Shown piece after piece: positions 4,167 to 31,100 of a DNA stretch of 64,000 bases. Position 1 is the stretch's first letter. Each line of letters begins with the position of its first letter. The stretch covers positions 7,696 to 71,695 of the forward strand of contig JAGALA010000015.1 in the NCBI GenBank assembly GCA_017625935.1, written 5' to 3'. The DNA is from Clostridia bacterium (GTDB lineage: Bacteria; Bacillota; Clostridia; Oscillospirales; CAG-272). The position numbers and the translations under genes are program-made. The notes beneath the pieces were generated by a model that had not been told where the DNA came from, did no database searches, and worked only from the letters and a program-made list of their open reading frames with translations.

Positions 4167-5771
4167 ATGCAAAGGGAACAAAACGTATCAGAAAAAATCC
4201 ACTCCGTAGGCGAAGATGCTTTGATAAACGGCGCAAGGGTGAGAGCTCTTGCAAGCGAAGATGGAAAGAGGAAAAAGGACGGCTTTGCTAAATTAAAGCG
4301 CCGTGCAAATGCGATGCATCTTATAAGGTCGCTGCTCCTCGGCTTTACCTCAGCTTGGCTGACAGGTGCGCTTGTCTTATCGATTGTCAGGTTTTTCCCA
4401 CTTTACGGGGATCAATATCAGCTAATTGACTTACTTTACACCGCGCTCCCATCAGGCCTTGCACAGCTTGTTGGCTTGGCGGTTGGCTTTGGCACTTGGT
4501 TTATTTTGAGGCGAAACGACAAGGTGCTGGCAAAGCGGTTTGACAGTCAGTTTGATTTCAAGGAGGGAATGCAAACCTCGCTTGAATACAAGGACGATAC
4601 GGGTGCTATGGCAACTCTTTTACGCGACAGCATGAAGGAGAAAACCGAGGCGGTAAACACGAAGGAAATTAAAATAAAGGCGCTTCCTGCTTACATAGTG
4701 GCGGCGGTGATCAGCTTTGTTCTTTGCGTTGTGATGCTGTTTATGCCGTATAACGTAATTGAGCGCCCCGGCGATAAGGTTGAGCCGTTTGAATTAAGCG
4801 AAATTCAAATTGCACAGATTGAGGCAATTATTTTGCGCGTTGAGTCCTCCGAGATGGAAGAGGGTGCGCGCGCTCAGGTGGCGACGGAATTAAAGGCGCT
4901 GCTTGATGTTTTGAAAATCACCAAGGAAAAGGACACAGCGCTTGAGTTGATTTCCTTAAGCGTACTGAAAATTGACGACATCACGGAAAAAACGGGTACA
5001 AGCTATGATTTGTACGATACCTTGGTCACGGGCGATACGATATTTACAAGGGACGTTGGCAGACTGCTCACGCTTCACAATTGGGAAAAATTCAAGATAA
5101 AGCGCGAGAGAATGAGAGCGTACTTTGAGCACGCGGAGTTCGGCACGGAAAATGCGGACATTGAAAAGATAAATACCGAAACAATAGGGCTTATCAAGGA
5201 CAGCGCGCTGAGCCTTAAAAATCAGCTTGCAAAAAGCGGAATTGATGAAAACGATGCATTATACAGTGAGCTTTTGAATCTTGCAAACGGGCTTGAGTCA
5301 ATAGCGTCCGACCTTGAAAACGGACTTATCAACTACCGCGCGGCGGTTGGCACCTCGGAGCAGGGTGAGATTTTCTTTTTGCTTGGTGACAAGATATATC
5401 AGGAGCTTGACAAGCAAAACAAAAACTACTCCGTTGGCTTCGGTGCAAGCGACGAGATAAGAGAAATGTTCGGCTTGCCGCCTGTGAACCGTGAGGACAA
5501 CAAAACCGAAAAGAAGCCGACAGACGTCGATGATCCCGACAATAAGGACGAGGAGGGCAATCACGGCGGCGGCTACGGTGACGGAGACGTTTTCGGCAGT
5601 AACGATGCAATCTACGACAGAGACGAGAACGCACACATTAAATACGGTCAAGTGCTTGATGCGTATTATCAGATAATGACAAATTCAAATTATACCGAAG
5701 AGGAAAAGAAAGCAATTCAAAGCTATTTTGAAATCCTATACAGAGGTCTTGAAGAAGAGAAAGGTGAGTAA
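4167..5771 (+). CDS. Membrane-anchored helical protein typical of MoxR/VWA operons
   Basis: Three N-terminal hydrophobic segments, a long helical region, a Gly/acidic linker and a C-terminal 'KAIQSYFEIL' helix. First gene of the moxR operon. Confidence 0.6.
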   Translation: MQREQNVSEKIHSVGEDALINGARVRALASEDGKRKKDGFAKLKRRANAMHLIRSLLLGFTSAWLTGALVLSIVRFFPLYGDQYQLIDLLYTALPSGLAQLVGLAVGFGTWFILRRNDKVLAKRFDSQFDFKEGMQTSLEYKDDTGAMATLLRDSMKEKTEAVNTKEIKIKALPAYIVAAVISFVLCVVMLFMPYNVIERPGDKVEPFELSEIQIAQIEAIILRVESSEMEEGARAQVATELKALLDVLKITKEKDTALELISLSVLKIDDITEKTGTSYDLYDTLVTGDTIFTRDVGRLLTLHNWEKFKIKRERMRAYFEHAEFGTENADIEKINTETIGLIKDSALSLKNQLAKSGIDENDALYSELLNLANGLESIASDLENGLINYRAAVGTSEQGEIFFLLGDKIYQELDKQNKNYSVGFGASDEIREMFGLPPVNREDNKTEKKPTDVDDPDNKDEEGNHGGGYGDGDVFGSNDAIYDRDENAHIKYGQVLDAYYQIMTNSNYTEEEKKAIQSYFEILYRGLEEEKGE

Positions 5772-5776
5772 TTAAA

Positions 5777-6784
5777 ATGGAAAACAAAGCACAAAACACA
5801 GAAAAGCAGCTTGAAAAGGTAAAAGCATTCAGCGAGAAGGTTGCTAAAATTAAGAATGAATTAAAAAAGGACGTTGTCGGACAAGCTGAAATTATCGATA
5901 ACGTAATCATTGCAATTGTTGCAGGCGGTAACGTGCTCCTCGAGGGTGTGCCCGGCGTTGGTAAGACACGTTTGGTTCGTTCCCTTGGCAGAGTTTTATC
6001 TCTCCCATTCTCACGTATTCAGTTTACCCCTGACCTAATGCCATCTGACGTTACGGGTGCAAACATCGTTGAAAAGGACGAAAACGGCAGACTCAACACA
6101 TCCTTCAGAAAGGGTCCTATCTTTGCAAACTTAGTGCTTGCGGACGAAATTAACCGTGCAACACCGAAGACACAGTCCGCTATGCTTGAGGTAATGCAGG
6201 AGCATAAGGTAACTGTCGGCAACGACGTACATAAAATCAGCGAGCCGTTCTTCGTGCTTGCAACGGAGAACCCGATAGAGCAGGACGGTACTTATCCGCT
6301 TCCCGAGGCTCAAATGGACCGTTTCGTTTTCAAGCTTATCGTTAATTTCCCATCCGATGACGAGCTTATCGACATCGTTAAAATGACACAAAAAACACTT
6401 GCCGAAACTGCCGAGGCAGTTATTAACGGTGAGGAAATTTTGGAGATGAGAGAGCTTGCAACGGAGGTTTTGGTTGCCGACGACGTGCTTGCTTACGCAA
6501 TTAAGCTCGTCTCGGGCACACACCCCGAGCTTCCCTCGGCTGCTCCTTCAACAAAGAAATACGTAAAATACGGTGCATCCCCCCGTGCGGCTCAGGCACT
6601 TATGACCTGTGCAAGAGTAAAGGCACTTATGGACGGCAGATACAACGTGTCCTACGACGATATCAGCGAGCTTGCTTATCCCGTGCTTCGCCACAGAATT
6701 AAGGTGAACTTCACGGCGATAAACGACAAGCTTGGCGTTGACGACGTAATTTCAATGATAATTAAGGAAACAAAGAAGGCGTAA
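5777..6784 (+). CDS. moxR: MoxR-family AAA+ ATPase
   Basis: Walker A GVPGVGKT, RIQFTPDLMPSD, Walker B LADEINRA, GTYPLPEAQMDRF, GASPRA. Confidence 0.95.
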   Translation: MENKAQNTEKQLEKVKAFSEKVAKIKNELKKDVVGQAEIIDNVIIAIVAGGNVLLEGVPGVGKTRLVRSLGRVLSLPFSRIQFTPDLMPSDVTGANIVEKDENGRLNTSFRKGPIFANLVLADEINRATPKTQSAMLEVMQEHKVTVGNDVHKISEPFFVLATENPIEQDGTYPLPEAQMDRFVFKLIVNFPSDDELIDIVKMTQKTLAETAEAVINGEEILEMRELATEVLVADDVLAYAIKLVSGTHPELPSAAPSTKKYVKYGASPRAAQALMTCARVKALMDGRYNVSYDDISELAYPVLRHRIKVNFTAINDKLGVDDVISMIIKETKKA

Positions 6785-13909: not shown

Positions 13910-16900
13910 ATGAAAAGAAGAATAGCTTTAGCTATGGCACTTGTTTTCACGCTTGCTATTGTATTCGTGCTTGCGTCCTGCGGTGGTGATGAGGGCTGTA
14001 AAAATCATACATACAGCACCGAATATACAACCGACGCATACGGACACTGGTACGTTTCAACCTGTGGCTGTGAGGGCGAGGTTGCCAACTACGGCGCGCA
14101 TAAGGATGAGGACAAAAACGGCAAATGCGACGTTTGCGAGTACGTGATTTGTGCTCACACATTTGCAAACGAGTGGTCAAGTGACGAAAACGGACACTAC
14201 TACGCTTCGACCTGCGAATGCGCACCTCAAAAATCAAACGAATCAGCTCACGTTGATGAAAACAAGGACGGCGTTTGTGACGTTTGTAAGTACGTTGTTT
14301 GCTCACACGAGTACGCAACCGAATGGTCAAGTGACGAAACAAACCACTGGAAAGCACCTGTGTGCGGCTGCGAAATTGATTCAAAGAGCTTCGGCGCACA
14401 CGTCGACTCAAACAAGGACGGTAACTGTGACACCTGCGCTTACGTTGTTTGCGCTCACACCTACGAGAGTGAGTGGTCAAGCGACGGAGCATACCACTGG
14501 TACGAAGCAACCTGCGGCTGTGACGTTGTTAAGGACAAGAAAGAGCACGAGGCGGGTGAGGATGAAACAGTCTGCGGTACCTGCGGTGCAAATATTTGCA
14601 AGCATACCTACGAGGATACCCTTTCATATGACGATACCTACCACTGGTACGCATCAAGCTGCGGCTGTGACGTTGTCAAGGACAAGGCAGAGCATACCTG
14701 GTCAAGCGCGTGGGAAAAGGACGGCACAGGACACTGGCACAAGACAGAGTGCGGCTGTGATGTTATAAGCTCAGTCGAGGAGCACTTTGACAGCGACGAT
14801 GAGGACTCACGCTGTGACAAGTGCGGTCAGATCGACTTTGCGTCCCTCATTGGCAATATTGACGAATATGTTGGCGAGGAAAGAAACCAAATAGACAGTA
14901 AGGTTGACGAAAAGGATCCGATTTACGATAACAAAATTTCAACCTCTCAGTCAATCAAGATTTACGACGATTATATTTTAGTGTTAGATGGCTTTGGTAA
15001 CAAAAAGTACATCTCATACTGCGGAGAGAACAACTCTATTCCGTTCGTTGTTAACGTGGATTCGGGCAATTTGGCACAAAGAGAGCTTGACTATGACGAT
15101 TCAAGTCTTTTAAGCTTCTACGGCGTTTGCGAGATTGCAGCAGGCACTTCCCTCGAGGAATATTTGATTTCGCTTTACAATCTCGGCGTAAGTGAAAACG
15201 CAAGCAGCTTTAACTACCTTTGCGATGAGGAAAATTCCAAATATTCATTCTCATACTTCTACGATGCAGGCTACGTATATGCAGACGTTGTAGTTGAGTT
15301 TACCCTTGACGAAGAGAGAATGGGCGTTACCTCACTCACACTTGACGAAAAAAGATATGACCACGATACATACGTGATGGGCGAAACTAACGTAGTTACG
15401 TATACTGTAAAGCAGACGATAACTCAAGGCTTTGGCGACCCAATGGATTCAACTGATGCGAAAAATCCATACGCTGCAAGCAAATACTTGTTTAGCGAGC
15501 TTATTCTCTTTATTGCGGAGAAAAAATTTGACGGCACGTACGCTCCTACAAGCGAGCAAATTACCGAGGGCTGCACAGTAATTATTGCGCCTGAATACGC
15601 AAACGGCTTGCGCCTTATGCTCGGTACTAACCAAGCACACTATGCAGAGTTCAACCGCTACACCGTTGAATCAAACGGACTTGAGGCGGGCTGGACAAAC
15701 TACCCAATCTTTATGTACGCAACAAAGGGCGGCACGTACGAGGTTACGGTTTCTAACGAGCTTACCTCAATTTCATTTACAGTTGTTGCAGAATATAAGG
15801 CACCTACAACGCTCAGACCTGCCGTTGTGGTTGACGACGAAAAGGTAAGAGTGAAGGAATACTCAATTTATAGCGGTCTTGAATTTGTTGTCGGCGTTTT
15901 GGCAAACTCCGCAGCTGAAAGCCCGTTTGTAAATATGCCTACCGTATCAAAGGGTGACGCTTCAAAGATTACCTTCACTAAGGACGGTGAAAACTGGATT
16001 GCCGTTGCTTCCGAGGCGGGTGAATACGAGCTTACATTCGTTTCCGCGCTTGACGAAAGCATAACCGCAACACTCCCACTTACAGTTCTTGAAATTCCGA
16101 CAGCAGCTGATATCTTAAACGGCTACTATGAGCTTTCAGAAAACGATATGTCAATGATAGGTAGCATTAAGTTCACACCTGTCGAGGCAGGCGCATCAAG
16201 CGGTACAGCTGTTCTTAAGATCACAATCCCCGGCAACCCAATGCTCGGCATGCCTGATGAGGTATGGGAGGCGACCGTTTCATACGCATATGAAAACGGC
16301 GGAATCGTTCTTTCGGGCACAGAGGGTGACGACGTTTCACAGTTCGCACTTAAAATCAGCGACAGATACGTTCTTACTCTTGTAAGAACTCCTTACCCCG
16401 AAATGCCTGATTATATCGAGGAATACGAGTTCTTTGCAACCGAAGAGATTATCATAAAAGACCCAACCGAAAATCCGTTCACAATGAACGTTGTGGAAAC
16501 ATATCAATATCACGAGAGCAATGCGTTTATCTTCGTTGCGGGCGAGGCAGGCAAGTACGTATTTAACGTTCCTGCGGGCTACGGCTTGAAGGTAAATTCA
16601 TCCGAAAAGGTTCACTATCTCAATAATGTAAGCGGCTTTGAGTTCTCACTTGACTTGAAGGAGCGTCAGGAGGTAACGTTTATTCCTATGGCGGCTAAAG
16701 TCGGCGAGGTTACAATGTACTTCCACATTGAAAAGGAAACAGTATTGACTGACGCAAACGGCCTTGGCGGCACATATACCTTCGTGGCACTTTCTCAGTT
16801 TGAATTGACGTTCACTCCAAGTGCATCGGGCGCTACAAGCGGTGTTCTTACAGTTAAGGATCCTATCAACATCAACAGATCCGGCAGCTTCTCCTACACA

Positions 16901-17665
16901 ATCGTAGACGGTGACTACGTCTTTAGCGAGGATGCGGGCGTGTTCATCACAAAGGACGTAATCGGCAGCTGGTCCTTCCAAAACGCAAGCTTGAGTAAGC
17001 CCTATCAGTTCTCAGGTCCAACCTCATACGTTGAGCCAACCGTGCAAGAAATTCCGTATAACGGCTACAAGGACGAAAACAAGCTCGGCGGCATCTACAC
17101 AGTTACCGCCCTCGGAAATGAATATAAGCTTATCATCGTTCCTTCAGCTGACGGCGGCGACGGCAACGGTATGCTTCAAATATACAACCCCGCAAGCGGA
17201 AAGTATAGCGAGCCATATAGCTACTTGGAAATATGCAACGAATACTTCTTTGATGATGCAAGTGTTGCAATATACAGAGAAAATGACAAATGGCTTATAA
17301 AAGCAGAAGGTCTTAACGGTGTTGAATTTGCTGATGCGACAGTTGAGGTAAAACCGCAAAGTAACGTGCTTGTAATCGGTTCAAATACAATCAAGCTTAC
17401 CCCTGTGGACATAGCTAACGGCGGTAAGGAATTCACAATAACACCAAGCGCGAAGGGCGAATTTACCTTTGATGGCGACGTTGATGTTTATGTTAGATAT
17501 GGCGACAATCTCGTGAAAGTATCCGGCAAGATTGTTGTTGAAAAGGGTGTAACATATACGGTTGTTATCACTACAAACGGTCCTGCGGGTGCATATTTAC
17601 TCAATGTCAACTTCATTCAGTACACAGGCGGTGGAATGGGCGAATTACCTGACGATGAGCTTTAA
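13910..17665 (+). CDS. Large surface lipoprotein with N-terminal Cys/His repeats and beta-rich domains
   Basis: Lipobox LASC. Six D-x3-H(W/Y)-x4-C-x-C units, several followed by H-x-D-x3-(D/N)G-x-CD-x-C. Beta-rich remainder. Confidence 0.7.
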   Translation: MKRRIALAMALVFTLAIVFVLASCGGDEGCKNHTYSTEYTTDAYGHWYVSTCGCEGEVANYGAHKDEDKNGKCDVCEYVICAHTFANEWSSDENGHYYASTCECAPQKSNESAHVDENKDGVCDVCKYVVCSHEYATEWSSDETNHWKAPVCGCEIDSKSFGAHVDSNKDGNCDTCAYVVCAHTYESEWSSDGAYHWYEATCGCDVVKDKKEHEAGEDETVCGTCGANICKHTYEDTLSYDDTYHWYASSCGCDVVKDKAEHTWSSAWEKDGTGHWHKTECGCDVISSVEEHFDSDDEDSRCDKCGQIDFASLIGNIDEYVGEERNQIDSKVDEKDPIYDNKISTSQSIKIYDDYILVLDGFGNKKYISYCGENNSIPFVVNVDSGNLAQRELDYDDSSLLSFYGVCEIAAGTSLEEYLISLYNLGVSENASSFNYLCDEENSKYSFSYFYDAGYVYADVVVEFTLDEERMGVTSLTLDEKRYDHDTYVMGETNVVTYTVKQTITQGFGDPMDSTDAKNPYAASKYLFSELILFIAEKKFDGTYAPTSEQITEGCTVIIAPEYANGLRLMLGTNQAHYAEFNRYTVESNGLEAGWTNYPIFMYATKGGTYEVTVSNELTSISFTVVAEYKAPTTLRPAVVVDDEKVRVKEYSIYSGLEFVVGVLANSAAESPFVNMPTVSKGDASKITFTKDGENWIAVASEAGEYELTFVSALDESITATLPLTVLEIPTAADILNGYYELSENDMSMIGSIKFTPVEAGASSGTAVLKITIPGNPMLGMPDEVWEATVSYAYENGGIVLSGTEGDDVSQFALKISDRYVLTLVRTPYPEMPDYIEEYEFFATEEIIIKDPTENPFTMNVVETYQYHESNAFIFVAGEAGKYVFNVPAGYGLKVNSSEKVHYLNNVSGFEFSLDLKERQEVTFIPMAAKVGEVTMYFHIEKETVLTDANGLGGTYTFVALSQFELTFTPSASGATSGVLTVKDPININRSGSFSYTIVDGDYVFSEDAGVFITKDVIGSWSFQNASLSKPYQFSGPTSYVEPTVQEIPYNGYKDENKLGGIYTVTALGNEYKLIIVPSADGGDGNGMLQIYNPASGKYSEPYSYLEICNEYFFDDASVAIYRENDKWLIKAEGLNGVEFADATVEVKPQSNVLVIGSNTIKLTPVDIANGGKEFTITPSAKGEFTFDGDVDVYVRYGDNLVKVSGKIVVEKGVTYTVVITTNGPAGAYLLNVNFIQYTGGGMGELPDDEL

Positions 17666-17773: not shown

Positions 17774-19216
17774 TCAATTATCCTTTTCGCGCATTTCTTC
17801 CACCTTGAATTCAAACCAGAAGATGCTGCCAACGCCTATTTCGCTTGAAACGCCGAAGCGCGATTCGTGAATAAGCAGGATGTTTTTTACAATTGAAAGA
17901 CCGAGGCCCGTGCCGTGAATTGCACGCTTGTGCACCTTGTCAATTTTGTAGTAGCGGTCCCAGATGAGCGGCAAGTTTTCCTCGCTTATGCCCTCGCCCG
18001 AGTCGATAACCGAGATTCGGACAATACCGTCCGTCACCTCTTGCAAAATCCTTACCGTTTTGTCCTCGCCCGTGTAGTTTATCGCGTTGTTTACAAGGTT
18101 GTAAACAACCTGTAAAAGGCGTGTTTCGTCCGCGTTTATAAAGACCTCGCAGTCGTAGTCAAAGGTAACCGTGTAGCCCTTGTGCTCAAGCAGCTTTTCA
18201 TATCTCTTTACCGTTTCGACAACCGATTTGGTAAGTGAAATCTTGGTCATATTTATTGACTGCGTGCCCGACTGAAGCTTGGAAACGGTCAAAAGGTCGT
18301 TTACAAGTGAGTTTAGGCGCGCCGTTTCGTCAATGATAATTTGCATATTCTCGGGTGTTCGCTCGTCGGGAAAGTCACGCATAACCTCGCTGTAGCCCGA
18401 AATCATAGTTAAGGGCGTTCTTAAATCGTGCGAGATGTTTGCAATAAGCTCCTTTTGAGTTGCGCTAAGCTTTTTTAATTCCCCTGTGGCTGCGTTTAGC
18501 GCCTCGGCAAGCTCGCAAACCTCCTTAGGGCCCTTTTCCTCGAAGGTCACGTCGTAGTCATAAAGAGATAAGCTCTTTGCCTTCTTGTAAATTTGCGAAA
18601 TCGGGTTTGAAATCCTTCTTGAAATGATAAAGGAAAGCACCACCGAGATAACAAGCGCAAAAACGGAAATTAAAAGGAGTAGCAGCTGAAACGCAAACTT
18701 TGTGAGTGCGGGCGGCTGTGCATCTGTGTTTATTATAATCATATGCGAGGGAGTGCCGTCCTCAAATTCACCTGCGAGCTTTACGTAAATAAACTCGAAG
18801 TCGCCTCCCGTTATATATTCGCGGTTCTCGCTTTGATATGCAAAGCGCATAAGCTCGGTAAGCATTTCCTTGTTTTCCTCGCCGTTTACCGTCGAAATTA
18901 CGTTATTGCCGTAGAGGTATAAAAATTCCTCACTAAAATTCTCCGAAATCGGCACAATGGCAATTGAAATATCGTCGCCGTACTGCCCCGAGGCACTCTC
19001 AAGGTAGCTGCCAAGGTTGGGGTCGTCGATTTTAGATGAAATATCGTTTGAAATGTTCGTTACGGTGTTTTCCTTAACGGCTCTGAACACAATTCTTAAA
19101 AACATTGCTTGGAAAAGCCAAAGCGACGCAATTAAGACAAGGGAAAAGGCAATCATCGAAATAAAAATATGTAAATTAATCGACAGATGCTTTCTTTTTA
19201 CGGATTTAGCTTTCAT
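17774..19216 (-). CDS. Sensor histidine kinase (2 TM, HAMP, HisKA, HATPase)
   Basis: SHDLRTPLT H-box, NLVNNAINY, DSGEGI, GTGLGLSI. Confidence 0.93.
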   Translation of the reverse strand: MKAKSVKRKHLSINLHIFISMIAFSLVLIASLWLFQAMFLRIVFRAVKENTVTNISNDISSKIDDPNLGSYLESASGQYGDDISIAIVPISENFSEEFLYLYGNNVISTVNGEENKEMLTELMRFAYQSENREYITGGDFEFIYVKLAGEFEDGTPSHMIIINTDAQPPALTKFAFQLLLLLISVFALVISVVLSFIISRRISNPISQIYKKAKSLSLYDYDVTFEEKGPKEVCELAEALNAATGELKKLSATQKELIANISHDLRTPLTMISGYSEVMRDFPDERTPENMQIIIDETARLNSLVNDLLTVSKLQSGTQSINMTKISLTKSVVETVKRYEKLLEHKGYTVTFDYDCEVFINADETRLLQVVYNLVNNAINYTGEDKTVRILQEVTDGIVRISVIDSGEGISEENLPLIWDRYYKIDKVHKRAIHGTGLGLSIVKNILLIHESRFGVSSEIGVGSIFWFEFKVEEMREKDN

Positions 19217-19902
19217 TTTTCCTCAAAGCGGTAGCCCATACCGCGGATTGTAACTATAAAATCACTGTACTTGCCAAGGCTTTTTCTCAAAATCTTGATG
19301 TGAGTGTCAAGGGTTCGGTCATCGCCGAAAAAGTCGTAGCCCCATACGTCAGAGAGCAGCTTGTCACGTGAAAGGGCGATATTCTTGTTTCTTAGCATAT
19401 AGAAGAAAAGCTCGTATTCCTTTGGCGACATATTTGCGCGCTCACCGTCGATGTAAACAATTCTTGCGGTAAAATCCGCAACCAAGCCGCCGTTTGCCAA
19501 GGAAACTATCTCGTTTTTGTTTTCTTCCTTCTTTTCGCTTGCACGCGCACGCTTCATAATAGCGTCAACGCGGAGCATAAGCTCTTTTGGCGAAAACGGC
19601 TTAACAACATAATCGTCAATTCCGATTTCAAAGCCGTTTATCTTGTCGTATTCCTCACCGCGTGCGGAAAGCATAATGATAGGCACGTTGCTCGTTTCGC
19701 GAATCTTGCGTGAAGCGGAGAAGCCGTCAAGCTCGGGCATCATAATATCCATAATAACGATATCAAACTTATCCCTTGAGAATTTCATTACGGCGTCCAT
19801 ACCGTTAGACGCCTCGGTAACGGTGTGCCCTTCAAATTCGGCATATTTACGGATGAGCTTTCTTATCATATCCTCATCATCAACAATTAAAATATTGTAC
19901 AT
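19213..19902 (-). CDS. OmpR/PhoB-family response regulator
   Basis: ILIVDDE, MDIMMPELDG, DDYVVKPFSP, winged helix RTLDTHIKILR...TIRGMGY. ATG 19902 follows GAGGTG. Confidence 0.95.
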   Translation of the reverse strand: MYNILIVDDEDMIRKLIRKYAEFEGHTVTEASNGMDAVMKFSRDKFDIVIMDIMMPELDGFSASRKIRETSNVPIIMLSARGEEYDKINGFEIGIDDYVVKPFSPKELMLRVDAIMKRARASEKKEENKNEIVSLANGGLVADFTARIVYIDGERANMSPKEYELFFYMLRNKNIALSRDKLLSDVWGYDFFGDDRTLDTHIKILRKSLGKYSDFIVTIRGMGYRFEEK

Positions 19903-19920
19903 TATAATCACCTCTATAAT

Positions 19921-19949
19921 ATTTTATCATATATAAATTCAAATTTCAA
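19921..19949 (-). promoter_or_regulatory. SigA-type promoter of the two-component operon
   Basis: Minus strand TTGAAA-17 nt-TAAAAT with TG extension. Confidence 0.6.
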
Positions 19950-19983
19950 TATAGTATTTATTTGTGCCAAAAAGGTGTCAAGG

Positions 19984-20025
19984 AAACCAAAAACGCACCC
20001 CAAGTGAGAAGTGCGTTTTTGGTTT
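19984..20025. terminator. Terminator-like hairpin
   Basis: AAACCAAAAACGCAC-12 nt-GTGCGTTTTTGGTTT. Confidence 0.75.
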
Positions 20026-20029
20026 TATA

Positions 20030-20300
20030 TTTTGAAGGAGAGTAGATTGAGTCTATTTTAGTGCGCCCGTGCCACGGGCTTTAATCTCCAAAGCTTTTTT
20101 GCGTTACACTCGCAAAACCAAAGCGAGTGTAACAAAAGCTGATGCTAAGCATCTATGTTTAAGGAGAGAGATATGGTCTATATTTATTAACTCCTTAATG
20201 CGCTTTTTTGCTACACTCGTCGTTTTGACGAGTGCAACCAAAGCTCCCGCGCCGAAAAGATTCGGCTTGGGTGTGATTAAGGAGAGAGGGTGTAGTCAAA
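20030..20300 (-). ncRNA. Candidate tandem structured small-RNA array with anti-SD motifs
   Basis: AAGGAGAG...GTC motif at 20035, 20161 and 20279. Two related ACTCG...CGAGT hairpins inside AAAGC/GCTTT and CTCC/GGAG stems. Strand inferred from the upstream gene and terminator. Confidence 0.5.
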
Positions 20301-20301
20301 T

Positions 20302-21060
20302 TTAGTTTAGCTTTCTTTGATATTCAAGCTCGGTTAAGCGCAAATAAGCGCCGAATGCGATAGGACCGGGGATGTAGTTGATTTTTTCAACCTCACCGTC
20401 AGCGCCTATACCAACAAGCTCACCGTTTAGGTTGAAAACTCCGCCGCCTGCTGCGCCGATTATAATAAATCCGCTTGGCTGTGTATCTTCAGGACTTGCC
20501 CATTTTACACAGGGGAGCACCTTTGCATCCTCGTAAATTTTTAAAACCGCGATGCCTGAGGCGTTGTCCGCGCCGCAAAGCACTGCCTCATATTTATTTC
20601 CGTTTTCGCACGTTACGTCAGCGAGCAAGGCAGGAAGACCTGAGCGATGATTGCTGATAACGGCTGTTGTTGTTACAATGTAGTAGCCGTGTCTGTCGTT
20701 TGAGTCCGAAAACTCGCCCGCGATAACACCGCTGCCCGATGAACCTGTTTTTGTGTTAACCGATACAACGGATTTTTTGAGTGAATCAAATATATTTACT
20801 GAATTCTTGCCCTCGCTGAGCGCTGCCTGATCACCGCTTGAAACGTACGATGTGGAGTGTGTAACTCTTGGCGTATCGTTGTTCATTTTGCGTGAAATTG
20901 CGATAAAAGCAAGAATTGAGGTTGAAACAATTACTGACGTAGCTGCAAGCGATATACAAACTATAAGAACGATGGGAAGTGTTCTTTTCTTTTGAGAAAC
21001 TGCTTCGCCGTCTTGATTTTTGATACCGTTTAAGCTGTCGTTAAATATATAATTAGACAT
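20302..21060 (-). CDS. Membrane-anchored HtrA/trypsin-like protein lacking catalytic residues and PDZ domain
   Basis: One TM helix, SVVSV, GSGVI, YIVTTTAV (canonical TNxHV), GIAVLKI (canonical DxAVLKI), GAAGGGVFNLNGELVGI (canonical GNSGG). Confidence 0.75.
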   Translation of the reverse strand: MSNYIFNDSLNGIKNQDGEAVSQKKRTLPIVLIVCISLAATSVIVSTSILAFIAISRKMNNDTPRVTHSTSYVSSGDQAALSEGKNSVNIFDSLKKSVVSVNTKTGSSGSGVIAGEFSDSNDRHGYYIVTTTAVISNHRSGLPALLADVTCENGNKYEAVLCGADNASGIAVLKIYEDAKVLPCVKWASPEDTQPSGFIIIGAAGGGVFNLNGELVGIGADGEVEKINYIPGPIAFGAYLRLTELEYQRKLN

Positions 21061-21105: not shown

Positions 21106-21137
21106 ATTCTACAACACGAATGTGAATTCTGTGTGAA
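21106..21137 (-). promoter_or_regulatory. OmpR-family-type direct repeat plus -10 box upstream of the HtrA-like gene
   Basis: Minus strand TTCACA-N5-TTCACA, 9 nt, then TAGAAT. No consensus -35. Confidence 0.6.
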
Positions 21138-21205: not shown

Positions 21206-21241
21206 ACCGAATGAAGTATGCAATCTTGGCATATTTTTGGA

Positions 21242-21492
21242 AAAGCTATGATGAAGCCGGCAATTTCCAAGCTCCATTCACAGAGAGGGCGCACACGGCT
21301 GAGAGGTGCCTAATGGTAGGATGTTTGCATTTCCCTTCGGAGCTGATTTTCTGAAAATTGAGTAGGAAAATACGGGAGATCCCGTTATAGGTCGTGGAAG
21401 TGATAGCTTCCTTAAAGTGCCGCATTTGCGGAATTTGGGTGGTACCGCGGACTTTTGTTCGTCCCTTGCTAAAAAGCGAGGGGCTTTTTTTA
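21242..21492 (+). promoter_or_regulatory. T-box riboswitch (Phe)
   Basis: Stem I AGAGA and GCTGAGA motifs, TTC specifier candidates near 21331-21338, T-box AATTTGGGTGGTACCGCG (21432-21449), terminator 21461-21492, upstream of pheS. Confidence 0.93.
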
Positions 21493-21590: not shown

Positions 21591-22604
21591 ATGAAAGAAA
21601 AATTAAATCAAATAAGAAGCGAGGCATTTAAGCTTCTTGAAAACGAAAACTGCAACATCGAGGAGGTAAGAATTAAGTACCTTGGCAAAAAGGGCGAGCT
21701 TACCTCAGTTCTTCGTATGATGGGTCAGCTCTCGCCCGAGGAAAGACCTATTATGGGTCAGCTCGCAAACGAGGTCAGAGCCCAGATCGAGGAAAAAATC
21801 GCCGAGATGGCGGAATCAAACAAGGCAAGGGAGCTTGAGCGCGCGCTCGTTTCCGAAAAAATTGACGTAACCGCGTACGGCAAGGAGCAAAAGCTTGGCA
21901 AGCTTCACCCACTTACACAGGTGCAAAGAAAGATGGAGGATATCTTCATCGGCATGGGCTTCTCAATTGCTGAAGGACCCGAGGTAGAGTACGACTACTA
22001 CAACTTCAAGGCACTTAATATTCCCGAGAACCACCCTGCAAGAGATACGCAGGATACCTTCTACATTACGGACAACATTCTTCTCCGTTCACAAACCTCA
22101 CCTGTTCAGGCAAGAGTAATGGAAAAGACACAGCCACCGATAAGAATCATCTCCCCCGGCAGAGTTTACCGCTCTGACGAGGTTGACGGCTCGCACTCAC
22201 CGCTTTTCCATCAGCTTGAGGGACTTGTTGTTGACAAGGGCATTACAATGGGCAACCTTCGCGGTATGCTTGAAACCTTTGCAAAAACAATGTTCGGTGA
22301 AAGGACAAAAATCCGCTTCCGTCCTCACCACTTCCCATTTACAGAGCCAAGTGCCGAGGTTGACGTTTCCTGCTTTGTTTGCGGCGGCAAGGGCTGCCGT
22401 CTTTGCAAGGGCGAGGGCTGGATTGAAATTCTCGGTGCGGGTATGGTGCATCCAAACGTACTTAGAACCTGCGGCATTGACCCCGAGGTTTATAGCGGCT
22501 TTGCATTCGGTATGGGTATTGAAAGAATCACAATGTGCCAATACGGCATTGACGATATGCGTCTTCTTTACGAGAACAACATTAAGTTCTTGAAGCAGTT
22601 TTAA
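21591..22604 (+). CDS. pheS: Phenylalanine-tRNA ligase alpha subunit
   Basis: [35 protein letters not shown]. Confidence 0.98.
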
Positions 22605-22622: not shown

Positions 22623-25028
22623 ATGAATTTATCAAGAAAATGGCTTACCGATTACGTTGACGTAACAGAGGTAAATAACAAGGATTATTGCGACAGAATG
22701 ACCGACACAGGCTCTAAGGTTGAGGGCTTCGAGGTGTTGGCAAGCGATATTGACAACGTCGTTGTCGGCAAAATCACAAAAATTTCAAAGCACGAAAACT
22801 CCGACCATCTTCAAATTTGTATGCTTGACGTTGGAGAGGACGAGGAAATTCAGATAGTAACAGGCGCGCAAAACGTTTTTGAGGGCGCGATAGTTCCCGT
22901 GGCGAAAGCACCTGCAAAATTGCCCGGTGATATTGTAATTAAGGCGGGCAAGCTCCGCGGTGTTCCCTCAAACGGTATGCTTTGCTCAATTGCCGAGCTT
23001 GGCTTAACCACTCACGATATGCCAACCGCTATCGAGGACGGTATCTTTATTCTTAACGAGCTTGAGGAGTCTGTTGGCTTCACACTCGGTATGGACATTA
23101 AGGAAGCGCTTATGCTTTCCGATGACGTGGTTGAATTTGAAATCACACCGAACCGCCCCGACTGCTTAAGCGTTATAGGTCTTGCACGTGAAAGCGCGGC
23201 TTCCTTTGAAAAAGCACTCAATATTCCTACCCCAAGCGTAAAGGGAGTGGATGACGGCGACAAGGTTGAAAACTATATTAAGGTTGACATCAATTCACCG
23301 CTTTGCAAGCGTTATGCCGCAAGAGTGGTAAAGAATATCAAAATCGAGCCTTCCCCCTTGTGGCTCAGAATGCGCCTTCGCGCCTCGGGCGTGCGCCCAA
23401 TCAACAATATTGTAGATATCACGAACTACGTTATGCTCGAATACGGTCAGCCAATGCACGCCTTTGACTACAAGTGCCTTGACGGCTCACATATTATCGT
23501 AAGAGAAGCAAACGAGGGTGAAACCTTTAAGTCACTTGACGATATTGACCATACATTAAAGAGCGGTATGCTCGTTATTTCCGACGAGAAAAAGGCGGTT
23601 GCCTTGGCGGGTGTAATGGGCGGCGCGAACAGCGAAATCACCGACGGAACCAAAACGGTTGTATTTGAAAGTGCAAGCTTTGACGGACCAAGCGTGCGTG
23701 TTACCTCACGCGCCCTCGGTATGAGAACCGAGTCAAGCTCGCGCTTTGAAAAGGGACTTGACGAGGAAACGGTTATCCCCGCAATCGAGCGCGCCTGTGA
23801 GCTTGTTGAATTGCTCGGCGCAGGTGAGGTTGTCGCTAGTCTTATCGACGTTTATCCAAATCCAAAGAAAACACGCGAAATTCCACTTAACGCGGATAGA
23901 ATTAACGCGTTCCTCGGCACAAATATTTCCGAGGACGAAATGGTAAGAATCCTCAAATCTCTCTCCTTCAAGGTTGAAAACGGTACGGTTTACGTTCCGT
24001 CCTACCGTGATGACGTTGAGGGTATGCAGGACGTTGCCGAGGAGGTTGCAAGAATTTACGGCTACAACGAGATTGAAACAACTAACGTTGTGGCATCACT
24101 CACACAGGGTGAAAGAACACCGCGCCAAGCATTTGACGTAAAGGTGAAGGATTCACTTTGTGCAATGGGTATGTATGAGATTAACACCTTCTCATTTATC
24201 AGCCCGAAATACTATGATAAAATCAATATGCCATCAAATGACGCAAGAAGAAATTCCGTTGTTATTTCCAATCCGCTTGGCGAGGACACGAGCGTAATGC
24301 GCACAACCTCACTCCCGTCAATCTTAGAGGTGCTTAACAAAAACAGCAACCTAAAGAACGATGAGGCACTCCTTTACGAGGTTGCAACCATCTATATTCC
24401 AAATGAGGATAAGAGCCAGCTTCCGTCCGAGCCGAAGGAAATTTCGCTCGGTATGTACGGCGGAGTTGATTTCTATGACCTAAAGGGTGTAATTGAGGGA
24501 CTCTTTGCATCTACGGGAATTAAGGACGCATCCTTTGTAGCTGAAAGCGGCGACCCAACCTTCCATCCCGGCAGATGCGCAAAAATCTACGCGCAAGACG
24601 GCACATATCTTGGTATAATGGGCGAAATTCATCCACTTGTCGCACAAAATTACTCATTTAACAAGCGCGTTTATATCGCCGCACTTGATTTTGAAGCAAT
24701 GTTTGACTGCCACGAGGCTGAAGCAAAGTATCAGCCGCTTCCTAAGTTCCCAGCGCTCACCCGTGACTTCTCGTTCGTATGCGACGAGGGACTTGAGGTT
24801 GGCACAATCGAGGGCACAATCAAGAAGTCGGGCGTTAAGCTCCTTGAATCGGTTAAGCTCTTCGACGTATATAGAGGCGCACAGGTAGGCGAGGGCAAAA
24901 AGAGTGTTTCGTTCTCTGTTTCCTTGCGTGCCTCCGACAGAACTCTTAACGACGAGGAAGCAGACACCGCGGTTAAGAAGATTCTCAAAACCTTGGAAAA
25001 AGAGCTCGGCATAACACTCCGCGCATAA
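22623..25028 (+). CDS. pheT: Phenylalanine-tRNA ligase beta subunit
   Basis: OB-fold LRGVPSNGMLCS, ITPNRPDCLS, DVAEEVARIYGY, C-terminal FDVYRG anticodon-binding domain. Confidence 0.98.
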   Translation: MNLSRKWLTDYVDVTEVNNKDYCDRMTDTGSKVEGFEVLASDIDNVVVGKITKISKHENSDHLQICMLDVGEDEEIQIVTGAQNVFEGAIVPVAKAPAKLPGDIVIKAGKLRGVPSNGMLCSIAELGLTTHDMPTAIEDGIFILNELEESVGFTLGMDIKEALMLSDDVVEFEITPNRPDCLSVIGLARESAASFEKALNIPTPSVKGVDDGDKVENYIKVDINSPLCKRYAARVVKNIKIEPSPLWLRMRLRASGVRPINNIVDITNYVMLEYGQPMHAFDYKCLDGSHIIVREANEGETFKSLDDIDHTLKSGMLVISDEKKAVALAGVMGGANSEITDGTKTVVFESASFDGPSVRVTSRALGMRTESSSRFEKGLDEETVIPAIERACELVELLGAGEVVASLIDVYPNPKKTREIPLNADRINAFLGTNISEDEMVRILKSLSFKVENGTVYVPSYRDDVEGMQDVAEEVARIYGYNEIETTNVVASLTQGERTPRQAFDVKVKDSLCAMGMYEINTFSFISPKYYDKINMPSNDARRNSVVISNPLGEDTSVMRTTSLPSILEVLNKNSNLKNDEALLYEVATIYIPNEDKSQLPSEPKEISLGMYGGVDFYDLKGVIEGLFASTGIKDASFVAESGDPTFHPGRCAKIYAQDGTYLGIMGEIHPLVAQNYSFNKRVYIAALDFEAMFDCHEAEAKYQPLPKFPALTRDFSFVCDEGLEVGTIEGTIKKSGVKLLESVKLFDVYRGAQVGEGKKSVSFSVSLRASDRTLNDEEADTAVKKILKTLEKELGITLRA

Positions 25029-28158: not shown

Positions 28159-31100
28159 TTAATTTTCAGTCCTTCCACAAACGCACTCGCCGTTTTCGTA
28201 TGTATGTGTGTGTCCCCATACAACGGGGCAGTTTGAATAGTTCCACTGGTCTGACCAGTTGCTTGGTTGTTCCTCTGCTTCACAGTAAATTGTAAGTGAC
28301 GAACATTTTGAGAATGCGCTGGTGTTTATTTTTGTAACACTACTAGGAATTATTATTTTTTCAAGCGAGAAACATCCACTAAATGCAAAATCTCCAATAG
28401 TCGTTACATTTTTGCCAAGAGTTATGCTTGTTAAAGAACTACAGTTTCTAAATGAATATCCCCTTATTTCTTTCACGCTATCGCCGATAATTACGTTTGT
28501 TAACGAAGAGCAATTTTCAAAAGCCCATTCATAAATAGTTGTTATTCCGTTTCCAACAGTTACAGTAGTTAATTTATTGTAATTTTGCAAACGTGAATCA
28601 AGGATATAGTCTTTATTTTTTGTATTAGCACTTATATTAAGAATGCTTAGATGATATGATGAAAAATGTCCAATTGCATTTACTGGAACAGATGCTTCCT
28701 TGATTGGAGAATTATAGAATGCTTGGGACCCGATGCTGGATATATTATTTCCAATCGTTATATTTGTCAGAGAAGCACAGTATGAAAATGCATTTGAGCC
28801 GATATTAGTAACACTGTCTGGAATTGTAACATTTGTCAAACTTTCGCAATAATAAAATGCAGAATTGTCAATAGTTGTTATGCTTGTGGGGAATACTATG
28901 CTTTTTAACCTTCTGCATTTTTCGAATGCAGAAGGTCCAATAGCTGTTACGTTATCCCCTATTGTTACATTTGATAAAGCAGTGCAATCTTTAAATGCGT
29001 TTGTTTCTATAGTTGTTATGCTGTTAGGAATTTTTACATTTATAAGCGAATCGTTGCCGGAAAATGCTTCCGCTGATATAATCGTTACAGGAAAACCGTT
29101 GACAGAAGAAGGTATTATTAAGTCATTATCATTACAGCTACCGATACCTTTTACTGCTAAGGTTGCAGCATCGCTATTTAATGCGTATTCTAAACCTTCA
29201 CTTATGTATAAGTAGCCACAATTTATACACTCTTTTTCTTCGTTATATTGATGTCCAAGTGCGGAAATAACCTTTTGTTCAACTAAGAATTCACCGCAGA
29301 CGATACATCTTTTGCCTTCGGCAAGACCGGCTTTGGTGCACGTTGGTGCAACAGATGCTAGAATCTCTTCTGTGTGGCAAGCTAACACTTCGCACGGTTC
29401 GAGCAAAATTTCTTCGCAAACGGTACATTTAATTCCCATAGTGCAACCATTTTCGGTACAAGTTGGCTTAATTTCGGGAATTATTTCCATATTGTGTCCG
29501 AGTGCGTCAATGAATTGTTGCGCTACTAAAATTTCACCGCAAGTGAAACATTTTTTGCCTTCAGCAAGACCCGATGCAGTACACGTTGGTGCAACAGCAA
29601 CTATTGTTTCTTCGGTGTGTCCAAGCGCATTTACAGTTTCTTGCTTTGCCAAAATATCGCCACAAACAGAGCATTTTTTGCCTGCTGTGAGTCCTGATTC
29701 GGTACAGGTTGGAGCAACCGCAGAAATCGTTTCTTCGGTGTGCCCAAGAGCAACTACAGTTTCTTGTGCCGATAAAATCTCTCCACAAATAGAGCATTTC
29801 TTGCCTTCTGAAAGACCTGTTTCGGTACAGGTTGGGGCTATTGCAGGGATAATTTCTTCGCTGTGACCAAGTGCGTCTATCTCACCCGGTTCAAGTAAAG
29901 TTTCTTCGCAAACAGTGCAGCTGATTCCGTAAGAAAAACCGCCTTCTGTGCAAGTTGGAAGCTTTTCGGGGAGTGCTGACAAGGTATGTCCGAGTGCGTC
30001 AATGAATTGTTGTGCTACTAAAATCTCACCGCAGGCGGAGCATTTCTTGCCTTCGGAAAGACCAGATGTAGTGCAAGTGGGTACAATTGCTTCGATTTTC
30101 TGTTCGGTATGACCGAGAGCGTCGACTGTTTCTTGCTTTGCCAAAATATCGCCACAAACAGAGCATTTTTTGCCTGCTGTGAGTCCTGATTCGGTACAGG
30201 TTGGAGCAACCGCAGAAATCGTTTCTTCGGTGTGCCCAAGAGCAGCTAAAGTTTCTTGTGCCGATAAAATCTCTCCACAAATAGAGCATTTCTTGCCTTC
30301 TGAAAGACCTGATTCGGTACAGGTTGGCGCTATTGCTGGAATAATCTCTTCGCTGTGACCAAGTGCGTCTATCTCACCCGGTTCAAGTAAAGTTTCTTCG
30401 CAAACAGTGCAGCTGATTCCGTAAGAAAAACCGCCTTCTGTGCAAGTTGGAAGCTTTTCGGGGAGTGCAGACAAGGTATGTCCGAGCGCGTCGATGAATT
30501 GTTGCGCTACTAAAATTTCACCGCAGGCGGAACATTTCTTGCCTTCGGAAAGACCTGATGTAGTACACGTTGGTGCAACTGCAACGATTATTTCTTCGGC
30601 GTGTCCGAGCGCATTTACGGTTTCTTGCTTTTCCAAAATTTCGTCACAAATGAAGCATTTTTTGCCTTCTGTGAGACCTGACGATGTGCAGGTTGGAGCA
30701 ATTGCTTCAATTTTTTCTTCCGTATGACCGAGTTCGGCAACGGACTCTTGTGCCGTTAAAATCCCTCCACAAACAGAGCATTTCTTGCCTTCTGTGAGAC
30801 CTGTTTTGGTACAAGTTGGTAATATTGCTGGAATAATCTCTTCGCTGTGACCAAGTGCGCCTATCTCACCCGGTTCAAGTAAAGTTTCTTCGCAAACGAC
30901 ACATTTAATTCCCATAGTATAACCGTTTTCGGTACAGGTTGGCTTGACTTCGGAAATAATTTCCATATCGTGACCTAACGCATCAACAAACTCCTGTTCC
31001 GTTAATATTTCATTACACTCAGAGCACTTTTTGCCTTCGGTAAGACCTGATTTGGTGCACGTCGGTGCAGTCGCTGGAATTATTTCCTCGGTGTGAGTGT

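Follow-up and report, generated by a model that had tools for sequence, protein, structure and literature searches.

In the window, by which we mean the whole 64,000-nt stretch of Clostridia DNA that was analysed, three tandem units follow an htrA-like gene. Our main reading, to which we give a probability of roughly 45%, is that they form the 3' untranslated region (UTR) of the htrA-like mRNA, folded into modules with a CUCUCCUU core that would act as a riboregulator against ribosome-binding sites (RBSs) of the AAGGAGAG type. Because the core is complementary to this RBS type, the module probably yields small RNAs that damp translation. Judged on the sequence evidence from the genus, the element is best read as a genus-specific, 3'-UTR-embedded anti-Shine-Dalgarno (anti-SD) RNA that has been tandemly amplified in the window.

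The array first attracts attention on the plus strand. There, AAGGAG starts at 20035, 20161 and 20279 (periods of 126 and 118 nt); after gaps of 6, 6 and 5 nt come TTG, ATG and GTG, respectively, and then (A/-/TA)GTC; the frames thus opened comprise 4, 5 and 1 codons. A recount confirmed these positions, periods, spacings and short frames, all of which had been given in a first-pass annotation of the window. With both strands counted, the 2.08-Mb genome contains 106 copies of the AAGGAGAG 8-mer, a frequency from which ~0.007 copies are calculated for 271 nt; the three copies observed are therefore not due to chance. A repeat finder recovered the motif copies (families D1, D2 and D5), the GCTTT...ACACTCG / CGAGTG...AAAGC hairpins at 20093-20139 and 20202-20244 (D3, D4, I3, I8) and, within units, the outer stems GGAGA/TCTCC and TTAAGGAG/CTCCTTAA, so that the repeats, hairpins and outer stems described earlier were all found again. 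A BLAST search revealed no second copy of the region elsewhere in the host genome; the mobile or dispersed repeat against which the first-pass annotation had cautioned is rejected accordingly, the region being a single locus.

The gap that holds the array (19912-20301) lies between two minus-strand genes, and the order on that strand is htrA-like gene, three units, terminator and regulator promoter-like site; the units therefore constitute the 3' UTR of the htrA-like gene. In minus-strand order, the features are:

21106-21137, minus: putative htrA promoter, with direct repeat TTCACA-N5-TTCACA, 9 nt and TAGAAT
20302-21060, minus: HtrA-like gene (252 aa), TAA stop at 20302-20304; its 3' UTR holds the array
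20274-20304, minus: motif copy 3, abutting and overlapping the TAA stop of the htrA-like gene (20302-20304); predicted unpaired
20246-20271, minus: hairpin a3, 3' of motif 3 (inverted repeat I16 and folding)
20202-20244, minus: long hairpin b of unit 2, with two positions that form G.U on minus and the mismatches C-A and A-C on plus
20191-20198, minus: UUAAGGAG on the RNA, a 5' arm predicted to mask the anti-SD of motif 2
20157-20187, minus: motif copy 2, whose CUCCUUAA end is predicted to pair with UUAAGGAG at 20191-20198
20141-20153, minus: hairpin a2, 3' of motif 2 and followed by AGCUUUUGUU on minus; weakly terminator-like
20093-20139, minus: long hairpin b of unit 1 (repeat finder and folding)
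20085-20089, minus: GGAGA on the RNA, pairing with UCUCC of motif 1 as the outer stem of unit 1
20065-20079, minus: small G+C hairpin a1, flanked by the 5' arm and motif 1
20030-20061, minus: motif copy 1, terminal unit, RNA reading ...GACUCAAUCUACUCUCCUUCAAAA, directly 5' of the terminator
19984-20025, minus: terminator hairpin closing the htrA-like transcript, with perfect 15-nt arms (inverted repeat I1); bidirectional in form
19949-19921, minus: regulator promoter-like site TTGAAA-17-TAAAAT (sigma-70 consensus scan)
19213-19911, minus: OmpR-type response regulator gene, downstream of the terminator
17774-19216, minus: HAMP/HisKA/HATPase histidine kinase gene, following the response regulator gene

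A scan for the sigma-70 consensus, the only promoter type covered, detected no promoter-like site inside the array (20030-20300). The units had initially been regarded as free-standing sRNAs; this view gives way to one in which they occupy the 3' UTR of the htrA-like gene. The TTCA(C/T)A-N5-TTCACA repeat at the htrA promoter is kept in all ten relatives whose promoter sequence was compared, and the arrangement of TTCACA-N5-TTCACA, 9 nt and TAGAAT resembles, by analogy, the layout of OmpR-family-activated promoters. A near-identical layout (CTCACA-N5-TTCACA, 9 nt, TAAAAT) was noted on contig C30 of G000, near 29359 on the plus strand, ahead of a second OmpR-type regulator gene. On sequence grounds, htrA may be under the control of this second regulator and not of the one next to it.

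The carrier gene itself is unusual. The 252-aa ORF (20302-21060) scored 28.3 bits against Trypsin_2 (cut-off 27.6), and its product is the ortholog of HtrA proteins of 388-423 aa in relatives, from which it departs in having neither the His and Ser of the catalytic triad nor the C-terminal third. Alignment with the G019 ortholog shows TTAV for NAHV and GAAGGG for GNSGGG, with ~43 residues missing ahead of the GAAGGG motif; the coding ends of the htrA-like genes in G064 and G053 resemble that of the window. The window's HtrA-like protein is probably a catalytically dead, PDZ-less HtrA.

Which strand carries the element was addressed through folding and through the pattern of base changes. The 279-nt region 20026-20304 folds at -94.1 kcal/mol on the minus strand (shuffles -57.9 +/- 4.7, z = -7.69) and at -98.2 kcal/mol on the plus strand (shuffles -69.4 +/- 4.9, z = -5.88), with none of 200 dinucleotide shuffles reaching the native energy on either strand. 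Folding energy of the whole array was lower on plus in all nine arrays, although by less than composition shuffles predict, and for this reason the energy does not decide the strand. Across the seven copies of hairpin b (from G000, G064 and G053), 99.0% of cells pair on the minus strand, where all eight one-sided changes produce G.U, whereas on the plus strand 90.7% pair and the identical eight cells are C-A or A-C mismatches. Both sides have changed at two pairs. Because the seven copies are related, there are fewer independent events than counted; independent changes are estimated at at least six positions. Similarly, the terminator stems of 46 genomes contain 26 G.U pairs read as minus versus 4 read as plus, many of them common by descent, while the GGAUAAC hairpin of the second array clade is about even, with one wobble per strand. 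We conclude that the element has been selected as an RNA on the htrA (minus) strand, and the assignment of a candidate RNA's strand from wobble asymmetry alone may serve as a worked example. The minus-strand reading put forward at the start is thereby borne out by hairpin b and the G.U bias of the terminators, and the G-U-compatible changes mentioned with it proved to be real and strand-specific in the hairpin b counts.

Within the modules, exposure of the core is predicted to depend on position. In terminal units, the core has a mean predicted unpaired probability of 0.6-0.9; in internal units, it is predicted to be partly base-paired. A GGA-containing 5' arm situated 15-30 nt upstream pairs with the end of the core in ~10 of the 18 units that do not adjoin the stop, and arm and core covary between clades, the G000 clade having UUAAGG/CCUUAA and the G019 clade UGAAGG/CCUUCA. 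The structured units of the first-pass annotation thus correspond to modules folded at the RNA level, whose arms covary among homologs. In three species (G017, locus L045; G014, L046; G044, L048), a hairpin of ~28 nt is inserted within the motif, ~100-140 nt from the regulator start and between GGAGAG and GGGATAG (plus sense); the inserted hairpins differ in sequence, and their two-stem layout is alike.

The region was matched in 11 of 24 same-genus genomes, while 16 genomes representing other families of the order gave no match. A strict 20-nt pattern gave 14 matches in 10 of 50 genus genomes, all 14 at this locus, no more than a few hundred bases from the regulator ortholog; the reversed pattern, used as a control, gave none. 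The regulator ortholog was found in 49 of the 50 genomes, and its upstream region was read in all 49; in 46 of these loci, a TCTCC[A/T] core (htrA strand) lies beside the terminator, a count that includes two loci anchored by hand (G024 and G060), and in the other three (G046, G050 and G058) the core was missing there. Two genomes (G013 and G043) keep motif and terminator with no htrA gene at that place. In an ungapped alignment of the 46 loci, anchored on the core, identity reaches 80-100% in the core columns, to which the anchoring itself contributes in part, compared with 30-50% in the flanks. The relevant genomes derive from uncultured Clostridia/Eubacteriales, mostly from herbivore gut and faecal samples.

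Most species hold a single copy that starts a few bases from the htrA stop and ends 6-10 nt before the terminator. Arrays occur in nine genomes and comprise 27 units: three each in G000, G064, G019, G006, G016, G001 and G010, four in G053 and two in G004. The copy kept genus-wide is motif copy 1 (20030-20061), and the window's own clade is represented by three genomes (G000, G064 and G053). The comparison shows, at the level of sequence, an ancestral form with one copy, whose core is predicted to be single-stranded and lies immediately 5' of the htrA terminator, a module that was tandemly amplified to three copies in the window's lineage, and an element that is under selection across the genus.

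Covariance modelling, proposed in the first-pass annotation as a check, was carried through with a model (R1) built from 28 of 42 prepared terminal units. With R1, the locus is recovered in 34 of 50 genus genomes (28 of them the training set), always on the htrA strand; elsewhere in the genus genomes the model gave only seven weak matches (E 1e-4 to 9e-3). When R1 was run on the regions upstream of the regulator in 20 other genera of the family, it did not find the element, the sole match being weak (E 0.12) and on the opposite strand. A metagenome protein scan with the HtrA-like gene identified no relative. In environmental contigs, the 20-nt pattern produced 49 single matches, only one of which was scored by R1 (E 0.011) and proved unrelated on reading; all 49 are taken as chance matches. 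Among the weak R1 matches, one in G001 (L184, 1508-1597, plus strand; E 1e-4 per genome) is a motif-like module after a FakA-like gene, and one in G015 (L185, 901-985, minus strand; E 4e-4) a motif-like module after a gene for a 405-aa lipoprotein-like protein with no Pfam match. Both modules show the succession stop codon, A/U-rich stretch, ...AUCU..CUCC.., A-run and terminator. A further weak match, in G007, corresponds to a real gene start that follows a terminator, read in reverse complement.

What the core might pair with was examined in the window's genome. There, AAGGAGAG stands ahead of 59 ORFs with a minimum length of 60 codons, and the CUCUCCUU core is therefore the exact complement of a frequent RBS type. 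At the place of the start triplet, the 27 array units read CAA/CAU/CAC in 17 cases and CUA/UAU in 10, and the triplet is also lost in most single-copy species. Thus, the originally proposed complementarity to an SD plus a start codon holds for the SD, where the CUCUCCUU core matches 59 RBSs and is genus-conserved, and is not conserved for the start codon, for which 10 of 27 units lack the complement. Among 8151 candidate start regions, with crudely defined gene starts, the three window cores form 11, 23 and 34 duplexes of -22 kcal/mol or stronger, compared with 0-5 for six composition-matched shuffles against the identical set; the best duplexes reach -26 to -29 kcal/mol with the cores versus -21.5 to -24.2 kcal/mol with the six shuffles. 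Any anti-SD sequence would produce such an excess of strong duplexes, and the scan yielded no outstanding single trans target among these 8151 regions. A 13-nt identity at contig C49, tried as a target, was within calculated chance, and a second AAGGAGAG-like site on contig C9 was set aside as a chance match, lying within pheT on the antisense strand.

Pairing in cis fared poorly as well. Duplexes with the own htrA start region range from -7.4 to -11.6 kcal/mol (-8.6 to -9.7 kcal/mol in the window) and are no stronger than average in all ten genomes, with a fraction of 0.37-0.89 of background start regions pairing with the motif at least as stably. For the start regions of htrA, the regulator and the kinase alike, pairing in cis was rejected, since the regulator and kinase starts in the window also pair worse than most. 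By a crude test, genes with a GGAGAG-type SD more often have a hydrophobic first segment (32/94 versus 429/1790 for others; Fisher p 0.036), a figure that we regard only as a hint of enrichment. Neither Hfq (PF17209) nor CsrA (PF02599) was found in the 95%-complete host genome, while control genomes scored for CsrA. One metatranscriptome run contained 9% of the sampled words; only fragments 90-95% alike matched, in parts of the coding regions of the regulator and htrA, and the run did not cover 19770-20847.

If the main reading is correct, the array would be transcribed together with htrA from the promoter carrying the OmpR-family direct repeat, such that stress-induced transcription of htrA would also deliver one to four anti-SD modules. 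Release of the modules might proceed by partial termination at the U-tailed internal hairpins or by RNase cleavage, and exposed cores could then pair in trans with the SD regions of GGAGAG-type mRNAs, lowering translation initiation. The GGA-containing 5' arm of internal units would partly mask the core. The outcome would be an Hfq-independent anti-SD riboregulator coupled to the HtrA quality-control response; if expression is confirmed, it would exemplify how translation initiation can be damped in general, by a chaperone-independent route coupled to protein quality control.

A bolder form of this proposal, which we consider doubtful, would cast the htrA 3' UTR as a polycistronic precursor of up to four anti-SD RNAs that mimic the 3' tail of 16S rRNA and titrate AAGGAGAG-type RBSs genome-wide whenever the HtrA stress promoter fires. 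The locus would then be turning into a dedicated sRNA operon, because the carrier gene in the window's clade has probably decayed to a catalytically dead, truncated HtrA. Were this precursor reading true, the genus would show arrays of sibling sRNAs being born stepwise, as a 'seed plus terminator' module in a 3' UTR is duplicated in tandem.

Among the explanations that compete with a trans-acting anti-SD RNA, the one we take most seriously, rather unlikely as we judge it, confines the element to cis: it would be a 3'-end module of the htrA mRNA, acting in stability, termination or read-through into the regulator-kinase operon, and its likeness to an anti-SD would be incidental. Such a role would suit an element that always sits between stop codon and terminator, that recurs in motif-like form in two relatives, after the stop of a fakA-like gene in one and of a lipoprotein gene in the other, and for which the start-region duplex scan found no specific trans target. 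It would also suit the U-rich tails kept by internal hairpins a2 and a3, which suggest graded termination. However, the invariant part is precisely the anti-SD heptamer, and tandem amplification is hard to explain for a pure stability element. As for read-through, the sequence reading disclosed no antiterminator-forming complementarity between the motif and the 5' arm of the terminator, the regulator gene has a promoter-like site of its own, and the regulator, kinase and htrA start regions pair with the motif worse than average. An array serving as a tether or sponge for an RNA-binding protein or RNase, through either its C/U-rich sites or its GGA-containing 5' arms, appears improbable to us. 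The 30-nt conserved stretch does exceed a typical seed, the copy number ranges from 1 to 4 and the sites are displayed between hairpins, all as one might expect of protein binding; against this, the ancestral state is one site, no candidate protein gene adjoins the element, and CsrA and Hfq were not found in the 95%-complete genome.

Two further explanations, which would remove the function from the minus-strand RNA altogether, both strike us as highly implausible. Were the plus strand functional, the copies would be true RBSs with micro-ORFs, or an antisense RNA to the htrA 3' end. Indeed, read on plus in the window, each copy is a perfect SD with a start codon, each is preceded by a hairpin and a T-run, and the strand folds well. 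But the start codon is lost in 10 of the 27 array units and in most single-copy species, the helix changes favour minus, and the motif stands directly behind the bidirectional terminator, where the nearest promoter-like sequence is a weak 9-of-12 match overlapping the hairpin. The micro-ORFs that the first-pass annotation had offered as an alternative were rejected because their start codons are not conserved (TAG or ATA replaces the start triplet in 10/27 units), and their peptide lengths and sequences vary as well. Its other alternative, a plus-strand GGA sponge for CsrA, is unlikely given that AAGGAG is on plus while the helix changes point to minus, and that a search of the 95%-complete genome did not find PF02599. 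An equally faint prospect is that the element works as DNA (regulator-binding sites or a recombination site) or has no function, as a mobile repeat or neutral tandem duplication. Its position upstream of a regulator gene and the differing copy number between species could be accommodated in this way; however, the genome holds no further copy, the OmpR-type repeat of the htrA promoter (the TTCACA-type direct repeat) is absent from the motif, and three species have the motif split by hairpin insertions that a dimer site would not tolerate. Wobble changes that are asymmetric between strands, together with a core kept in 46 of 49 loci amid unalignable flanks, likewise speak against a DNA-level or neutral origin.

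With the trans-acting anti-SD RNA as the preferred reading, the element invites comparison with two multicopy sRNA groups. The streptococcal csRNAs are present as several homologous copies per genome, measure 51-202 nt and carry, between two stem-loops, an unpaired stretch complementary to the SD and often the start codon (PMC3091779). They are tied to an OmpR-type two-component system, the direct repeat for CiaR lying ~10 bp upstream of the -10 region, and each csRNA is intergenic and has its own CiaR promoter (NTTAAG-N5-TTTAAG) (PMC3091779). The CiaR regulon is described as also including htrA. In so far as the published account describes the csRNAs, they and the present element have in common the multicopy state, an anti-SD stretch, an OmpR-type system with a link to htrA and a similar layout of promoter and repeat. 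By the same account, the csRNAs have their own promoters in intergenic regions, whereas the units here lie in the htrA 3' UTR with no internal promoter-like site, and the csRNA repeat TTTAAG-N5-TTTAAG contrasts with TTCAYA-N5-TTCACA at the htrA promoter. In addition, the anti-start codon of the csRNAs is not conserved here (present in 17 and absent from 10 of 27 array units), and their unpaired anti-SD stretch has its counterpart in a core predicted to be unpaired in terminal units and partly paired in internal ones. The csRNAs belong to streptococci, and the host of the element to a different class, Clostridia.

LhrC1-5 of Listeria monocytogenes are likewise multicopy; redundant C/U-rich sites in these sRNAs pair with the SD region, their induction by envelope stress runs via the OmpR-type LisRK, and their action does not need Hfq (PMC4132741). 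Their motif is UCCC, with three per molecule, and they have their own LisR-dependent promoters (PMC4132741). As far as that account goes, the element differs in bearing CUCUCCUU once per unit instead of three UCCC motifs per molecule, and in having no internal promoter-like sites where the LhrC copies each use LisR-dependent ones. It also bears no sequence or Rfam similarity to LhrC. Indeed, Rfam 15 at gathering thresholds recovered only a T-box, elsewhere in the window, and at E values up to 10 the interval 19850-20450 gave seven chance-level matches, with no sRNA family over the units. The Rfam search suggested in the first-pass annotation has thus returned no known sRNA family for them, up to E 10. 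The best reading of these parallels is that the element would work like the csRNAs and LhrC yet belongs to neither, as it lacks promoters of its own, differs in activator repeat and in motif, and matches no family model.

CpxQ is reportedly an sRNA cut from the 3' UTR of the mRNA of cpxP, an envelope-stress gene. In general, 3'-UTR-derived sRNAs share the promoter and terminator of the parent gene, and their conserved seed is more constrained than the flanks. To our knowledge, the processed 3'-UTR sRNAs of the CpxQ kind described so far are single-copy, Hfq-dependent and Gram-negative. The element resembles this type in its place on the mRNA strand of an envelope-stress gene, downstream of the stop codon and ahead of the terminator, with a conserved seed (80-100% identity) in a variable 3' UTR (30-50%), and it would likewise share the promoter and terminator of that gene. 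It departs from the type in having up to four tandem modules in one 3' UTR rather than a single copy, and in a host genome in which Hfq was not found, whereas the CpxQ type is Hfq-dependent. A bacterial 3' UTR with an anti-SD motif is also known from icaR of Staphylococcus aureus, where a C-rich motif pairs with the SD of its own mRNA (PMC3868564). To the extent that the icaR account covers it, the anti-SD motif in a 3' UTR is common to both; icaR pairs with its own SD, whereas own-start pairing of the element is no better than average in 10/10 genomes. Sponges of the CsrB/RsmZ type differ in carrying GGA sites on the transcribed strand and acting on CsrA, while here AAGGAG is on plus and CsrA was not found.

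Taken by analogy with these systems, the element is best filed as a candidate 3'-UTR-embedded, tandemly amplified form of the anti-SD sRNA kind. Known anti-SD sRNAs associated with envelope-stress systems, in streptococci and Listeria, are free-standing multicopy genes; here, the seed lies inside the htrA 3' UTR of gut Clostridia. Within the full-text searches made, no description of an htrA 3'-UTR sRNA in Firmicutes was found. For the origin of families of sibling anti-SD sRNAs, the related species studied here, with 1, 2, 3 or 4 copies, would provide a natural series of 3'-UTR seed duplication into an array if expression is confirmed.

Several features of the surroundings were recorded in passing. 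The T-box leader in the window (21239-21469, plus strand; 101.3 bits, gathering threshold 93) lies upstream of pheS (21591-22604) and pheT (22623-25028), and a 1251-aa ORF (13910-17665, plus strand) has no Pfam match at E 0.001. On contig C19 of G000 (~5740-5880, plus strand), an intergenic AAGGAGAGTATTTTAG is situated within a ~75-nt loop closed by a 12-nt long-range inverted repeat, CACAGCGGAGTG / CACTCCGCTGTG; this site has only a short stretch in common with the htrA element. In some relatives, the gap between regulator promoter and terminator contains ~20-nt tandem repeats that copy the 5' half of the terminator (...GAAAACAAAGACGCGCC... several times), as in G016 (L016, ~1350-1500) and also at L010 and L013. 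Runs of GCCGTCAGCAGTCAGC-like repeats occupy the same interval in G007, G054 and G057 (L070, L062 and L063).
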